Source of the DNA: a virus
Direction: 5' to 3' (one strand)
Virus record (IMG/VR): IMGVR_UViG_3300050194_000017
Coordinates: 25,722-89,721 of that record
DNA length: 64,000 nucleotides
The notes below the pieces were generated by a model. It made no database searches, was not told the origin of the DNA, and saw only the letters and a program-made list of their open reading frames with translations. Shown piece after piece: positions 13,680 to 37,298 of this stretch. Made by a program: the position numbers and the translations under genes. Position 1 is the stretch's first letter. Each line of letters begins with the position of its first letter.

Positions 13680-14009
13680 ATGAGCGAAAGAAAAACAGTT
13701 ACTTCCAATGTTCATTTGTTTGGGACATATGAAAAATTCACATTTGATGATCTTTTTGAACGTCTACAAACAGAAATCATAGATCGTCCTGAAATTGATC
13801 CTCAAACAATCAAATTTGGGATTGAAGAAGAACGATACGATTATACTGATGGATCATATTTCTATTTCGCAATGTATTACGATCGTCCAGAGACAGATCA
13901 GGAATATCAAACCAGAATTGATCGAGAAAACAATAGGAAAGTTGATCAAGAAGAACGAGATCGTCGAGAATTTGAACGACTCCAAAAGAAATTTGGAGAA
14001 AAGGCTTGA
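13680..14009 (+). CDS. Hypothetical protein
   Basis: RBS GAGGA before ATG 13680; charged C-terminal helix. Confidence 0.7.
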   Translation: MSERKTVTSNVHLFGTYEKFTFDDLFERLQTEIIDRPEIDPQTIKFGIEEERYDYTDGSYFYFAMYYDRPETDQEYQTRIDRENNRKVDQEERDRREFERLQKKFGEKA

Positions 14010-14034
14010 TCTTTCTTTGAAGTTGTTGTATAAT
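14006..14034 (+). promoter_or_regulatory. Sigma70-type promoter immediately upstream of the amber suppressor tRNA
   Basis: TTGATC-17-TATAAT; the tRNA starts 9 nt downstream. Confidence 0.7.
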
Positions 14035-14042
14035 TGATTTAT

Positions 14043-14119
14043 CGGTAGTTAGCTCAGTTGGTTAGAGCGGAGAACTCTAAATTCTTTGGTCATCGGTTCG
14101 AATCCGATACTACCGGCCA
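14043..14119 (+). tRNA. Amber suppressor tRNA, anticodon CTA
   Basis: Perfect cloverleaf: CGGTAGT/ACTACCG-GCCA acceptor, GAGAA-CTCTAAA-TTCTT anticodon arm, ATCGG-TTCGAAT-CCGAT T-arm. Confidence 0.9.
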
Positions 14120-14126
14120 TGATTGA

Positions 14127-14266
14127 AAATTTTAGCGCAGATGTTGGCAATTGGTTAGCCAGCTCTTGGGAGGTGGATGCAAGGTCCATCGAAGTGTCTT
14201 CTCGAAAGAGTGCCAAGTGCATAAGACATGATGTCAGTTCGATTCTGGCCTTCTACGCTAAAATTT
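14127..14266 (+). ncRNA. tRNA-like RNA with D-arm and T-arm and a multi-hairpin domain replacing the anticodon arm
   Basis: AAATTTTAGCG/CGCTAAAATTT outer stem, TGGC-AATTGGTTA-GCCA D-arm, GTCAG-TTCGATT-CTGGC T-arm. Confidence 0.55.
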
Positions 14267-14284: not shown

Positions 14285-14494
14285 ATGAAAACAAATCTTG
14301 AACTTGATACAAAGAAATTTCTGCTGAGCAGTTTGGGTCGAATGATTCAGAGTTATGATTATGCTTATCCTAACAGTAGGCTAGATAAGGATCGAGCACA
14401 TGTTGCATTATGTGCAATCAAAGCTCAGATTGATGTACTGCAGAATTTCTTGAATGCAATGAACGAGCAGAAGAATACGTCCTCCTCGGATTGA
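14285..14494 (+). CDS. Hypothetical protein
   Basis: RBS GGAG before ATG 14285. Confidence 0.65.
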   Translation: MKTNLELDTKKFLLSSLGRMIQSYDYAYPNSRLDKDRAHVALCAIKAQIDVLQNFLNAMNEQKNTSSSD

Positions 14495-14657: not shown

Positions 14658-14732
14658 GCTTCCATCGTCTAAAGGTAGGACAGCGGATTTTCGATCCGCT
14701 AATTGCGAGTTCAATTCTCCATGGAAGTACCA
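14658..14732 (+). tRNA. tRNA-Glu(TTC)
   Basis: GCGGA-TTTTCGA-TCCGC anticodon arm, ACCA. Confidence 0.85.
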
Positions 14733-14758
14733 TTTAACCATCAACAAAAGGAAAGAAA

Positions 14759-15100
14759 ATGCGATCGTAGATCAACAAAGAAAAGACTTGGGTGTATGTG
14801 TTTATTCGGAAGGATCTTCCAATAGAACAAATCATTGTGCAGACAGCACATGCAGCCTTGGAGTCTGGAATCCATCTAAAACACGATAAAGAAAACGAAC
14901 CATCTTCTCTGATTGTTCTTCAAGTGAAGAATCAAAAGGAACTAGAAAAAGCTTATGAGAAGCTTAAAGATTCTGGAATCGAACTGATAAAGTTCTTTGA
15001 ACCAGACTGGGATTATGGATTTACATCGTTTGCTTCTGAACCTGTAACACAAGAACACAGGAATAAATTCAAGAAGTATCGTCTTTTTAATGGAGGTTGA
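14759..15100 (+). CDS. Pth2/PTRHD1-family peptidyl-tRNA hydrolase-like protein with in-frame TAG at codon 4
   Basis: RBS AAGGA then ATG CGA TCG TAG ATC AAC..., in frame with VYVFIRKDL...QTAHAA...LIVLQV...FFEPD. The ORF track starts it at a GTG (14792) lacking a good RBS. Confidence 0.75.
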
Positions 15101-15102
15101 TC

Positions 15103-15657
15103 ATGTATGCATAGACTTTTGATGATCTGATTGCAAAGATGCAATCGTGTTACCAATTTGAAAATATCAACATGTTGGATCATGGGAAGATGGTTGCTTC
15201 ATCGTATGATGAATTGATCGATCAACTTGAATCTGGAACTCATGAAATCCAATTGTTGAATGATTTATATGAACTACTGAAGAATAATCTTGTTGATTCT
15301 TTAGCAATCAGAAGATATCAAGTCTATCATGACTGTGGAAAACCTTTCTGTGAACCTACAGAAGAACGGAAGTATCCAGATCATGCTAGACATTCTTCTG
15401 AACAATGGTTGACTCTTTTCCCTGAAGATGTTGACATTGCAGAGTTGATGAGGCTTGATATGGTCTTTCATGAAGGAGCTGATGAATCTTTTTATCATCA
15501 TAGACTTGCTCCTACATTGTATTTGACTGCATGGGCGGAGATCTATGCGAATTGTCAGATGTTTGGTGGAACGAATTCGACATCTTTCAAGATCAAGAAA
15601 AAGAAGTTGATTCAACAAGGTAAGAAATTCATTAAGCACTTGACTAAACAAGAGTAA
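15103..15657 (+). CDS. HD-domain phosphohydrolase with in-frame TAG at codon 4
   Basis: RBS GGAGG then ATG TAT GCA TAG ACT TTT..., in frame with MLDHG...YHDCGKP...HARHS...DMVFH. Confidence 0.75.
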
Positions 15658-25627: not shown

Positions 25628-28225
25628 ATGACAGTAAAAAACAACTATTCGATCTATACATCTGTATCCAGAGAAGGAAACAACATCCTTTTCATGGGAT
25701 ACAACAATGAAGGAGCACCAGTAAAGGAAAAGATTCGATTTGCACCAGAACTTTTCATCGAACGTGCAGGAGGTGAATTTCATACACTGAAAAAGACATC
25801 ATGCGTTCGTAAAGAATTTGATACGATGAATGATTGTTATGATTTTGTAAAAACTCATAAAGATGTCTATAACTTGTACGGATGTTCAGACTTTGTTCGT
25901 CAATTCACAGGACGACATTTTCGTGGAGAACTGAAGCCACGCAATGATTTGATTCAAGTCTGGTTCTTTGACATCGAGACAAAGATTGGCGGAGGAGCTA
26001 CTGGAGAAATTGACGAAGAAGGAAATGACATTCTTTCTAAAGGAGGTTTCCCGGATCCAAAATCTGCAGCAGAATCAATTTCTTTGATTACGATGTATAA
26101 TCGTTCAAAGAAACAGATCACCACATGGGGACTATATGCAATTGATGCCCCTGATGTAAATTCTAAACAAACAGAAGAACAGATCCAAGAAGACATCGAT
26201 TGGATTCGCAGCAAGAATGTCGATTATCGCATGTTCTCTGATGAAACATCCATGCTCAAAGATTTTTTGATGTTCGTGAAGACAAACCGTTTAGATATTC
26301 TTTCTGGATGGAATTCGGAATTCTTTGACGTCCCATATCTCTACAATAGATTGGTGAATCTTCTTGGAGAAGCACTAGCTGCACATCTTTCACCCTGGAA
26401 GATTGTCAATGAACATAAAAAGTTCGTAAATGATAAAGAGAAGTTGACATATGAGATTGTTGGTGTTGGTCATGTTGATTTGCTTGATCTGTATAAGAAG
26501 TTCAATCCAGGATCTAAAGAATCTTTCGCACTTGGATTCATTGCAGATGTTGAACTTGGAGTTACAAAGGTAGAACTGCCAGGGGAAGATTTCAAGGATT
26601 CTTATGAGAATTATTGGTCTACATTTGTAAAGTACAACATTGTAGACGTGCTTCTTTTGGATGATCTTGACAAGAAGAAACAGATTGTTGATCTTTGTAT
26701 GTCTATTGCATACATGGCAAAGTGTAATTACGAAGATGTCGTCTCAGCCATGCGTACATGGGAATCTCTGATTTATAATCATTTCTTGGATTTAGATATT
26801 GTTGAAGACTGGACTAAGCCTCATTCTAAGAAGTTGCCGTTGGAAGGAGCATATGTTCATGTTCCTAAGCCAGGAGCATATCGATGGGTTGTTTCTGTAG
26901 ATGCAACATCAATGTATCCTTCTATCATGATGCAGAATAATCTTTCCCCAGAAACAATCCAATACAAGATCGACTATACCGTTCAAGATGTATTGGATGG
27001 TAAGATTCCAGAATTGAAATCGAATGAAATTCTTTCATGCAATGGTCTTGTTACGCGATCTGACATCAGCGGATTTATTCCTATCTTGACGAAGCAAGTT
27101 TTCGATGGACGTAAAGAAGCGAAAAACAAGATGTTGGATCTAAAGAAAATTGTTAAGTCTATTGAAAATGCTCTAGAAAAATCTAGCACAGAATCTGATA
27201 TTTCTGCATTGAACATGAAGCAAAATGTGCTGAAGGTGTTAGGTAACAGTCTGTATGGCGTTTGCAGTTTGCAGCACTTCCGTTATTACAATCATTACAT
27301 TGCAGAAGCAATTACGTTATCTGGACAAGCGTATCTGAAGCTGACGATGAAGATCATAAACGATGTTTTGAATAAGCTATGTGGAACTGTTGGTAAGGAA
27401 TATGCTTTCTACGGTGATACAGATTCGATCTTTTTTACTGCTGATGCGATGGTCAAGAAGATGTGGTCGAACAAGACAGATGATGAAATTGTCGCTGCTC
27501 TGGAAAAGTTTGTTATGAAAGTTCTGCAACCAGAAATCAATGATAAGCTGTCTGTTTTGACTAAGAAAATGGGAGCTCCGGAAAATTACATGTTCTTCAA
27601 GTTGGAAGGTATTTCCAAGAATGCAATCTGGTTAGCTAAGAAAAGATACATTGCTGCACTTCGTTATAATGAAGGTGTCTGGTATAATCCACCAGAAATG
27701 AAGATCATGGGAATGGAAATTGTCCGATCATCTACACCGAAGTTCATCAAAGAGCAACTTCGTAAAGCTGTTCAGATTTGCATTGATGGCGAAGAATCTG
27801 ATCTTCAGAAGTTCGTATCTGTTTGTAAGTCTGATTTCATTAAGAAAGATGTAGAAGATATCAGTTTTCCTCGTGGATGTAATGGACTGGGAGTTTATTC
27901 TGATGAAAAGACAATCTATAAATCTGGAACACCAATCCACGTTCGAGCTGCTCTGATGCACAATCATATTATTCACGAAAAGAATCTATCAACAAAGATT
28001 CAAGCAATTGGCGACGGAGATAAGATTAAATTTGTTCATTTGAAGATGCCGAATCCAATTCACGAGAACATCATTGGATATACATCTAAGCTTCCTGTTG
28101 AATTTGGTCTTCACAAATACGTAGACAAGAACATGATGTTTGAAAAGGGATTTGTCGGACCTCTTGAAGGTGTACTGAAGGCGATTGGATGGACCTCAGA
28201 AGAGCAGAATACGTTGGACTTTTGA
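25628..28225 (+). CDS. 43: Family B DNA polymerase, T4 gp43-like (no intein or intron seen)
   Basis: FDIET, GWNSEFFDVPY, YNIVDV, SVDATSMYPS, KVLGNSLYG, YGDTDS, KKRY. Confidence 0.97.
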   Translation: MTVKNNYSIYTSVSREGNNILFMGYNNEGAPVKEKIRFAPELFIERAGGEFHTLKKTSCVRKEFDTMNDCYDFVKTHKDVYNLYGCSDFVRQFTGRHFRGELKPRNDLIQVWFFDIETKIGGGATGEIDEEGNDILSKGGFPDPKSAAESISLITMYNRSKKQITTWGLYAIDAPDVNSKQTEEQIQEDIDWIRSKNVDYRMFSDETSMLKDFLMFVKTNRLDILSGWNSEFFDVPYLYNRLVNLLGEALAAHLSPWKIVNEHKKFVNDKEKLTYEIVGVGHVDLLDLYKKFNPGSKESFALGFIADVELGVTKVELPGEDFKDSYENYWSTFVKYNIVDVLLLDDLDKKKQIVDLCMSIAYMAKCNYEDVVSAMRTWESLIYNHFLDLDIVEDWTKPHSKKLPLEGAYVHVPKPGAYRWVVSVDATSMYPSIMMQNNLSPETIQYKIDYTVQDVLDGKIPELKSNEILSCNGLVTRSDISGFIPILTKQVFDGRKEAKNKMLDLKKIVKSIENALEKSSTESDISALNMKQNVLKVLGNSLYGVCSLQHFRYYNHYIAEAITLSGQAYLKLTMKIINDVLNKLCGTVGKEYAFYGDTDSIFFTADAMVKKMWSNKTDDEIVAALEKFVMKVLQPEINDKLSVLTKKMGAPENYMFFKLEGISKNAIWLAKKRYIAALRYNEGVWYNPPEMKIMGMEIVRSSTPKFIKEQLRKAVQICIDGEESDLQKFVSVCKSDFIKKDVEDISFPRGCNGLGVYSDEKTIYKSGTPIHVRAALMHNHIIHEKNLSTKIQAIGDGDKIKFVHLKMPNPIHENIIGYTSKLPVEFGLHKYVDKNMMFEKGFVGPLEGVLKAIGWTSEEQNTLDF

Positions 28226-36157: not shown

Positions 36158-36760
36158 ATGAAACTTCCTATTCTCGTTGATTTGGATGGTGTTCTCTTTG
36201 ATTTTGTTGATGGATTTTATTCCATCGCAATGGAGAAATATCCAAATCTTTATGCGATTCTTCCTGACATTGTAACAACATTTTACATCGAAGAATCAAT
36301 CGATCAAACTTTGCTGACCAGAGAACTTCGTCGTCAAGCATATGCAATTGTCGATGATAAAGATCTATTTCGTCGATTGTCATTGATTGAAAATGCTGTA
36401 GCTGGGATCAACTATCTGAAAGAATTATCTGGAAGAGAAGTAAAGTTTGTCTCTGCACCACACTGTTCTAACTTCAATTCTTATAGTCAGAAAGCCGAAA
36501 GCATTCATGATAAGTTCGGGAGACAATGGGTTGATAATTTAATCTTGACACGAGATAAATCTTTGGTTTCAGGAATTGTTCTTATTGATGATAAGCCATT
36601 GCCAATGGGATCATATAAAGAAAATTGGGAACACATCGTATTCGATCGATCATATAACATGACTCAATCGGAAGTTAAAGGCAAATATCGTATGTTCGGA
36701 TGGAGCAATTCAGAAGTAGAACGTCTAGTGGAATATATCAATCAGAAAGGTGATAAATGA
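36158..36760 (+). CDS. 5'(3')-deoxyribonucleotidase (HAD family)
   Basis: LVDLDGVLFDF, LIDDKP, FDRSYN. Confidence 0.85.
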   Translation: MKLPILVDLDGVLFDFVDGFYSIAMEKYPNLYAILPDIVTTFYIEESIDQTLLTRELRRQAYAIVDDKDLFRRLSLIENAVAGINYLKELSGREVKFVSAPHCSNFNSYSQKAESIHDKFGRQWVDNLILTRDKSLVSGIVLIDDKPLPMGSYKENWEHIVFDRSYNMTQSEVKGKYRMFGWSNSEVERLVEYINQKGDK

Positions 36761-37257
36761 AATTGCTTATCGTCGGACATGGACGACATGGAAAAGATAC
36801 CGTATCAGCGTACTTGAAAGAAAAGTATACTCTTGATTTTTTATCAAGTTCAGAATTTTGTGCAGAGAATGTAATCTTTCCGGTACTATCCGAAAAGTAC
36901 AGCTATAAAACTGTTCAAGAATGTTTCGATGATCGTCATAATCATCGAACAGAATGGTATAATTTGATTCATGCTTACAATGAAATCGATCATGCAAGAC
37001 TTGGACGTGAGATTTTTTCCAAATACGATATCTACTGTGGACTTCGGAACGCCAAAGAAATGATTGCAATGAAAGATCAACATGTTTATGATCATGCAAT
37101 CTGGGTTGATCGATCGGAACATCTCCCTTCAGAAGATATTTCGTCTATGACGATTTCTAAAGATATGTGTGATATCGTCATTGATAACAATGGAACATTG
37201 GATGAATTGTATGAAAAAATCGATGACATGATGAAGATCTTCTTGACTTCTGACTAG
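36757..37257 (+). CDS. dNMP kinase-like P-loop protein
   Basis: IVGHGRHGKDTV...IVIDNNGTLDEL; ends in TAG. Confidence 0.75.
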   Translation: MKLLIVGHGRHGKDTVSAYLKEKYTLDFLSSSEFCAENVIFPVLSEKYSYKTVQECFDDRHNHRTEWYNLIHAYNEIDHARLGREIFSKYDIYCGLRNAKEMIAMKDQHVYDHAIWVDRSEHLPSEDISSMTISKDMCDIVIDNNGTLDELYEKIDDMMKIFLTSD

Positions 37258-37298
37258 GAAGATGATACAATAGAAACACATTGAACATGGAGATTGTT

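Follow-up and report, generated by a model that had tools for sequence, protein, structure and literature searches.

Two adjacent genes with an early in-frame TAG

The subject of this analysis is a pair of adjacent viral genes, gene 1 and gene 2, that each carry an in-frame TAG stop codon at codon 4 and lie downstream of a gene for an amber suppressor tRNA, i.e., tRNA(CUA). They are located in a window of 64,000 nucleotides, the whole stretch analyzed here, which covers positions 25,722 to 89,721 of the IMG/VR record IMGVR_UViG_3300050194_000017. The source contig is viral and metagenome-derived, with a length of 96,962 bp, 38% GC content, and approximately 44% completeness according to CheckV. 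ARAGORN identified 17 tRNA genes on the plus strand of the window, one of them with the anticodon CUA. The features of the locus are as follows (SD, Shine-Dalgarno):

14006..14034, plus strand: sigma-70-like promoter TTGATC-17-TATAAT, a consensus match only, at 10 of 12 positions
14043..14119, plus strand: tRNA(CUA), amber suppressor (ARAGORN), with G73 and CCA encoded
14658..14732, plus strand: tRNA-Glu(UUC), part of the tRNA array, between tRNA(CUA) and gene 1
14748..14752, plus strand: SD-like AAGGA, 6 nt ahead of ATG 14759
14759..15100, plus strand: gene 1, predicted Pth2-fold protein, 113 codons, TAG as codon 4
14768..14770, plus strand: in-frame TAG at codon 4 of gene 1, next base A, with a homologous early stop in relatives
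15092..15096, plus strand: SD sequence GGAGG, 6 nt ahead of ATG 15103
15103..15657, plus strand: gene 2, HD-motif protein, phrog_14850, 184 codons, TAG as codon 4
15112..15114, plus strand: in-frame TAG at codon 4 of gene 2, next base A, aligned with ACC (Thr) or other sense codons in homologues

Direct reading confirmed the layout described in an earlier, sequence-only reading of this DNA. Gene 1 opens with AAGGA and ATG CGA TCG TAG, then continues for 109 sense codons to a TGA at 15098-15100; gene 2 opens with GGAGG and ATG TAT GCA TAG, then continues for 180 sense codons to a TAA at 15655-15657. The first canonical starts past the TAGs are GTG 14792 (8 codons on) and ATG 15139 (9 codons on). 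Neither is preceded by an SD-like motif, as had been claimed. The ATGs of genes 1 and 2 lie 640 and 984 nt past tRNA(CUA), within the distance of 640-1000 nt given previously. No plus-strand promoter-like or terminator-like site was found between tRNA(CUA) and gene 1, which makes it possible that tRNA(CUA) is co-transcribed with both genes. The site at 14006-14034, directly upstream of tRNA(CUA), is the sole plus-strand sigma-70-like site preceding the two genes.

The phage genome uses the standard code and is not TAG-recoded. Large plus-strand open reading frames (ORFs) of up to 865 amino acids are unbroken under table 11, standard-code coding coverage is 0.80-0.91, and reading TAG as a sense codon barely alters this coverage. 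When G000 was compared with G003 and G004, no internal TAG spanned by homology was found, the matches being only tRNA or antisense artefacts. These intact ORFs and the lack of homology-spanned internal TAGs in the three genomes do not correspond to genome-wide TAG recoding (code 15), in line with the earlier claim that whole-genome recoding is not involved. As a terminator, TAG is rare here, ending approximately four of the plus-strand ORFs of at least 80 amino acids. TAG-terminated ORFs of this size lie at 3282-3578, 6465-6887, and 36757-37284, and read-through adds just 7-18 codons to each.

Throughout the 97-kb contig, the pattern of an SD, an ATG, one to four codons, a stop, and a long ORF occurs only in gene 1 and gene 2, in both cases with TAG. 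A third ATG-x-x-TAG candidate, on the minus strand of the contig and outside the window, was rejected, since its frame runs through a tRNA gene and a normal start lies downstream. Across approximately 950 kb of related DNA, the same pattern with an ORF of at least 90 codons was found 36 times with TAG, five times with TGA, and never with TAA; nearly all of the 36 TAG cases belong to the gene 1 and gene 2 families. When the region was compared with GenBank phages by megablast, it gave tRNA matches only and no close relative.

We used profile and structure comparisons to characterize the two proteins, and both earlier assignments hold, i.e., Pth2-like for gene 1 (fold and PF01981) and, at the level of the motif, HD for gene 2. 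Gene 1 matched PF01981 (PTH2) with 29.1 bits (cut-off 23; E 1.3e-6) over profile positions 3-76 of 115, and a profile of the gene 1 family matched Pth2 chains in the PDB weakly. Its AlphaFold2 model, built with an alignment of IMG/VR rows only (predicted local distance difference test score, pLDDT, 91.4; predicted template modelling score, pTM, 0.85), returned exclusively Pth2 or Bit1 proteins among the top 14 PDB matches in Foldseek, with template modelling (TM) scores of 0.7-0.81 and E-values down to 3e-6. The modelled structure confirms a predicted Pth2 fold. The N-terminal Pth2 motif R-x-D-L ... Q-x-x-H-A is present in the gene 1 family.

The lysine of the G-K motif is the proposed catalytic residue of Pth2. 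Like the archaeal and eukaryotic Pth2 proteins (PF01981; PDB 3erj, 2zv3, 1wn2, 1q7s Bit1, and 1xty), with which it shares its fold at TM 0.7-0.8, gene 1 belongs to this group in structure, but unlike them it is very divergent: profile alignments give a two-residue deletion or E/A-Q in place of G-K, and the conserved lysine is absent. A near-invariant glutamine aligns with the canonical lysine, and Q20 of the gene 1 family is at least 90% conserved. Because a second Pth2 in the window (63321-63746; PF01981, E 1e-32) is canonical and ungated and retains G-K, the gene 1 protein may be a divergent, specialized paralogue with a substrate or chemistry that differs from that of the canonical enzyme. 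The canonical gene at 63321 itself ends in TAG, with a read-through frame that runs 20 codons more, to 63806; the suppressor could yield a C-terminally extended canonical Pth2 (63321-63806).

In gene 2, the residues H23, H72-D73, H90, D115, and H119 are invariant in 11 divergent homologues and make up the HD metal-binding signature. No Pfam family matched gene 2 at E <= 0.01; its only family match was phrog_14850, to which no function is assigned. The predicted structure has a pLDDT of 94. Its best structural matches, which are weak (TMq approximately 0.6; E approximately 1e-2), are to the C-terminal part of PDB 3wfo-3wfs, a ‘tRNA processing enzyme’ of the tRNA-nucleotidyltransferase family deposited as ‘Poly A polymerase’; weaker matches include the HD hydrolases 1xx7, 2pq7, PgpH, and YfbR. 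The gene 1 and gene 2 proteins plausibly both act at tRNA 3' ends.

Translation starts and the early stop in related phages

Comparison with orthologues indicates that the upstream ATGs are the true starts, as the sequence-only reading had proposed. Four IMG/VR phages (L004-L007), with approximately 50% amino-acid identity, 52-53% GC content, and 172-176-kb genomes with terminal repeats, have gene 2 orthologues that open with an SD and ATG TAC GCA ACC AAT TTT GAT (M-Y-A-T-N-F-D). This start aligns codon for codon with ATG TAT GCA TAG ACT TTT GAT in the window. Since these orthologues begin M-Y-A-T at the equivalent ATG, the alignment identifies ATG 15103 as the ancestral gene 2 start. It had been suggested that homologues be aligned at position 4, and for gene 2 this position is indeed a sense codon elsewhere, ACC (Thr) or others.

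In the same four phages, a gene 1 orthologue lies upstream of gene 2 and opens with an SD and ATG CTG (or TTA) TAG AAC AAA CAC TGG. The first ATG, GTG, or TTG after its TAG comes only 48-58 codons into a 109-codon frame, and many other gene 1 orthologues have none for 48-60 codons or more past the TAG, in a protein of approximately 109 residues. For the segment of gene 1 orthologues that runs from the TAG to the first canonical start, the ratio of nonsynonymous to synonymous substitution rates (dN/dS) is 0.03-0.22. Such purifying selection argues that it is translated. Together with the M-Y-A-T orthologues of gene 2, the SD-ATG-x(-x)-TAG opening kept in divergent gene 1 orthologues supports the view that the TAG codons lie inside conserved coding sequence. 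Almost without exception, a purine (A or G) follows the stop, and context studies in E. coli have found that such a base favours suppression.

The early stop is widespread in the gene 1 family. A scan of IMG/VR with the single gene 1 protein gave no match; an alignment-based scan found 44 gene 1 loci, comprising 38 with TAG, one with TGA, and five with an ordinary start. The TAG directly precedes the conserved domain in 38 of the 44 loci, and in approximately 36 of these a start lies one to five codons ahead of the TAG, in most cases preceded by an SD. When GenBank phages were queried with gene 1 by tblastn, 36 records were returned, and the SD-ATG-x(-x)-TAG opening was found in the orthologues of several cultured jumbo phages (Pectobacterium phage CBB, Cronobacter phage GAP32, Serratia phage BF, Acinetobacter phage ME3, Salmonella phage Arash, and Ralstonia phage RsoM2USA), as well as in the uncultured 595-kb phage LR756511. 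In a maximum-likelihood tree, the TAG state occurs throughout the family, and the five ordinary-start loci (in the tree as L093, L098, and L106) form one clade. The stop of the gene 1 relatives ranges from codon 2 to codon 6. The weight that had been placed on ‘exactly codon 4’ is thus not borne out; the tandem codon 4 of the window is a detail of its lineage rather than a rule. At one locus (L104, 9960-10000), a TAG lies ahead of the Pth2-like domain with no in-frame start between it and the preceding TGA, and an ATG is present in another frame, which may reflect an indel or an unusual start.

The position of the TAG in gene 2 differs between lineages. The window shares codon 4 with LR745206, whereas L094, L095, L105, and L131 have the TAG at codon 3 and L129 has it at codon 6. 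It stands at codon 47 in all CBB/GAP32/BF-like phages and at approximately codon 52 in L073, L076, and L078-80; G003-like phages, ME3, and L091 have no TAG in this gene. The residues aligned to these TAGs are T, V, I, K, N, or D depending on the lineage. Because they vary in this way, the aligned sites appear tolerant and the identity of the inserted amino acid would hardly matter. A metagenome scan added two further HD genes with an early TAG; in the same scan, no near-identical relative of the window phage turned up in which the gene 2 TAG could be re-checked.

In several phages the two domains are encoded by a single gene. HD-Pth2 fusions occur in Xoo-sp13, RAS14, and XacN1, and the reverse order, Pth2-HD, in Tenacibaculum phage pT24. 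Every fusion gene opens with ATG-x(-x)-TAG upstream of its annotated start and has one early TAG. The occurrence of fusions in both orders suggests that the Pth2-like and HD proteins act together, and their early TAGs indicate that the stop goes with the frame that is read first in the module, regardless of which domain it encodes. In XacN1, the fusion is ORF364 (AP018399.1; L121 locus 1489-2349), which has ATG AAG TAG six codons before its annotated start. We propose that ORF364 may be the ‘missing’ target on which the suppressor tRNAs of XacN1 act; it would have been overlooked because the TAG lies ahead of the annotated start.

Suppressor tRNA, proposed mechanism, and alternative explanations

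The early stop co-occurs with its cognate suppressor tRNA. We found tRNA(CUA) in all 12 TAG genomes that were fully checked, i.e., the window, G003, G004, ME3, CBB, BF, Arash, RsoM2USA, LR756511, Xoo-sp13, RAS14, and pT24, and XacN1 is reported to carry it (PMC5852040). Most of the TAG-bearing genomes checked encode no other suppressor tRNA. Within IMG/VR, a tRNA(CUA) gene lies no more than 10 kb from the gene at 31 of 38 TAG loci, often 200-500 nt upstream, compared to none of the five stop-free loci. The phages RaK2 and Hallingskeid have gene 1 homologues with ordinary starts and no tRNA(CUA).

The locus with TGA, L088, provides the key natural experiment, although a single lineage. Its gene 1 orthologue opens with AAGGA and ATG GAA TCG TGA, a tRNA(UCA) gene lies approximately 170 nt upstream, and no tRNA(CUA) was found among the 22 tRNAs of its 20-kb locus. 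In the maximum-likelihood tree L088 is nested within the TAG clade, as sister to L089. These observations support a covariation of stop type with suppressor anticodon and, together with the co-occurrence of early stop and cognate suppressor, the earlier proposal that reading of the TAG depends on the phage tRNA(CUA). No early TAA was seen in any client gene. Ochre suppressor tRNAs, with the anticodon UUA, do lie near the module in some phages, i.e., in L098 (8761-8836), L086 (15135-15213), and the tRNA region of RAS14 (L118/L119).

Among the tRNAs of the genome, the nearest paralogue of tRNA(CUA) is the phage tRNA-Gln(UUG), at 77% identity. Given this similarity and its G73, the amino acid inserted at UAG in the window phage is probably glutamine. 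The same approach is uninformative for G003, G004, CBB, Arash, and RsoM2USA, the tRNA backbones of which differ. The stretch at 14130-14260, between tRNA(CUA) and a small ORF at approximately 14287-14494, looks tRNA-like or structured, with a T-arm-like GTTCGATTC, and ARAGORN called no tRNA there.

We propose the following mechanism. Ribosomes would initiate at the SD-preceded ATG 14759 and ATG 15103 and meet UAG at codon 4, where translation would either be terminated by release factor 1 (RF1), with release of a tripeptide, or continue through decoding by the phage tRNA(CUA). Full-length gene 1 and gene 2 products would be made only if tRNA(CUA) outcompetes RF1, and their output would be limited by the suppressor. 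Because the stop lies at codon 2-6, a failed attempt would cost only a di- to pentapeptide. Read-through of the TAGs by the phage suppressor is very likely. It is also likely, judging from the comparative evidence, that suppressor tRNA and early matching stop form a conserved pair, which would render a two-protein module for tRNA 3' ends conditional on, or limited by, tRNA(CUA). The arrangement may serve regulation by timing, dose, or condition; candidate purposes are timing, dose, a check of functional phage tRNAs, and silencing of a harmful enzyme.

Several observations weigh against this conditional expression. The covariation consists of one TGA lineage, L088, and in that lineage a GTG directly follows the stop. 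There is no tRNA(CUA) within 10 kb at seven of the 38 TAG loci, three of which are cut by contig ends, and the loci are phylogenetically related, so that the counts are not independent events. A CBB-like contig of 358 kb (L068) keeps both TAGs, and the syntenic slot at 13902-13977 holds tRNA-Arg(CCG). In the window itself, GTG 14792 and ATG 15139 are near enough to the TAGs that slightly shorter proteins could be made without read-through. Finally, a few window genes still terminate with TAG, such that an efficient suppressor would carry a cost.

The sequence-only reading went further in hypothesizing that the gate senses the integrity of the tRNA pool or keeps the genes silent elsewhere. Extended in this direction, the module would be a self-contained sensor or AND-gate for tRNA state, in which enzymes acting on tRNA 3' ends, as the sole conserved client of the suppressor, are made according to its processing and charging and its competition with RF1. 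The enzymes might then feed back on this tRNA, or on tRNAs that are damaged or blocked, in opposition to host defences that target tRNA. We regard this extension as tentative and rather unlikely.

An explanation that leaves the suppressor out is that the three-codon mini-ORF ends normally and that the enzymes arise from re-initiation or independent initiation, at GTG 14792 and ATG 15139 here and at non-canonical codons elsewhere. Canonical starts do lie 8-9 codons past the TAGs in the window, an ATG or GTG comes right after the stop in L076, L088, and L109, and ATT or ATC is often the next codon after TAG. However, the downstream starts lack an SD, and many orthologues have AAC or AAT after the TAG and no ATG, GTG, or TTG over the 48 to 60 or more codons that follow. 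The residues from the TAG to the downstream start are conserved and align with those that follow the ATG in TAG-free orthologues. Nor does re-initiation predict a stop that never leaves the frame and that in almost every case is TAG, the terminator used least, or its linkage to tRNA(CUA) and its switch to TGA with tRNA(UCA). We therefore consider it improbable.

Alternatively, the TAGs may be read through without regulating anything, having drifted into tolerant positions under a suppressor kept for some other reason, as a near-neutral step toward TAG recoding. Their location at variable, tolerant residues would fit this explanation, as would the rarity of TAG as a terminator (approximately four of the plus-strand ORFs above the size threshold) and the proposal of Borges et al. 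that suppressors are acquired before recoding (bioRxiv 10.1101/2021.08.26.457843). Under drift, however, TAGs should scatter across genes, and none was found outside the module in G000, G003, and G004. The gene 1 stop has instead kept its position through very deep divergence and in phages of different host phyla, and the fusions retain exactly one early TAG in either domain order. Drift is accordingly a very improbable account of the pattern. That nonsense mutation or faulty assembly produced the TAGs, leaving both genes dead or truncated, can almost certainly be dismissed: although the viral contig was derived from a metagenome and GenBank annotators treated orthologues as truncated or absent, the same feature recurs in independently sequenced cultured phages and dozens of contigs, selection past the TAG is strongly purifying, and both frames are otherwise intact and encode proteins predicted to fold with high confidence.

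Relation to known systems and annotation

Two known systems, one bacterial and one from a phage, resemble the proposed gate in part. In prfB, which encodes release factor 2 (RF2), is autoregulated, and is one of several cases of programmed recoding, an early in-frame stop is passed by a +1 frameshift, and the system senses RF2 itself. As in prfB, an early in-frame stop would tie a translation-factor-like protein to the state of the decoding machinery; unlike in prfB, where the product feeds back, the key in the window would be a dedicated, co-encoded suppressor tRNA. The bar minigenes of phage lambda consist of an SD, AUG, AUA, and a stop; they stand alone and become toxic when Pth is in short supply. 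The window shares with them the strong SD, a frame of two to four codons, a stop, and a functional connection to peptidyl-tRNA hydrolase and the drop-off of peptidyl-tRNA. Unlike in lambda, a Pth2-like gene here continues the mini-frame without a shift, and the type of stop is tied to a suppressor tRNA.

Recoded phages, which read TAG as glutamine (code 15) using phage suppressor tRNAs, offer another parallel; gating by in-frame stops has been proposed for their late and lysis genes (Borges et al., bioRxiv 10.1101/2021.08.26.457843; Peters et al., PMC9523058). In both cases, a phage tRNA(CUA) would be needed for genes with in-frame TAGs and the stop is proposed as a post-transcriptional gate. 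In contrast to code 15 phages, the window genome uses the standard code and the stop is confined to a single module of one or two genes, nearly always within the first six codons of the first gene. The clients also differ, being tRNA-directed enzymes in a tRNA array as opposed to structural or lysis genes, and the stop has been held at one site over deep divergence, whereas the TAGs of code 15 phages are scattered. Borges et al. described the acquisition of suppressors by standard-code relatives of recoded phages, and did not describe this module (bioRxiv 10.1101/2021.08.26.457843).

Suppressor tRNAs are common in large, tRNA-rich, standard-code phages, where they have been puzzling. For XacN1, the targets of tRNA(CUA) were unidentified and read-through of 18 annotated amber stops gave nothing (PMC5852040), and the paper on RsoM2USA names no suppressor target (PMC8504454). 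Like the window phage, both are tRNA-rich, standard-code jumbo phages with a tRNA(CUA), and both carry the putatively gated gene themselves; unlike those reports, we propose a concrete client gene. The module thus offers a conserved, testable client for such suppressors. Full-text searches of the literature found no description of a suppressor tRNA paired with early-stop Pth2-like and HD genes. The present analysis contributes a two-gene form in which both genes would be gated, TAGs that recur in the HD partner, and the fusions. With one tRNA and one or two genes, the arrangement would be a minimal natural form of stop-codon gating that could seed changes in the genetic code of phages, and a compact natural part for synthetic translational AND-gates.

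Our findings also flag a systematic annotation error, with the gene truncated or missing in the GenBank records of CBB, GAP32, BF, ME3, Arash, RsoM2USA, XacN1, and others. Truncated versions of the Pth2-like gene, annotated from an internal codon, are CBB_406, GAP32_397, Arash gp84c, and ME3_195; in BF, RsoM2USA, and the pEa_SNUABM phages it is unannotated. Because the TAG of CBB/GAP32/BF-like phages lies so far into the HD gene, this gene has been annotated as two small ORFs split at the TAG (CBB_407/408 and GAP32_398/399). The tRNA(CUA) gene of Arash (OQ632216.1, 49173-49247) is annotated as tRNA-Phe.

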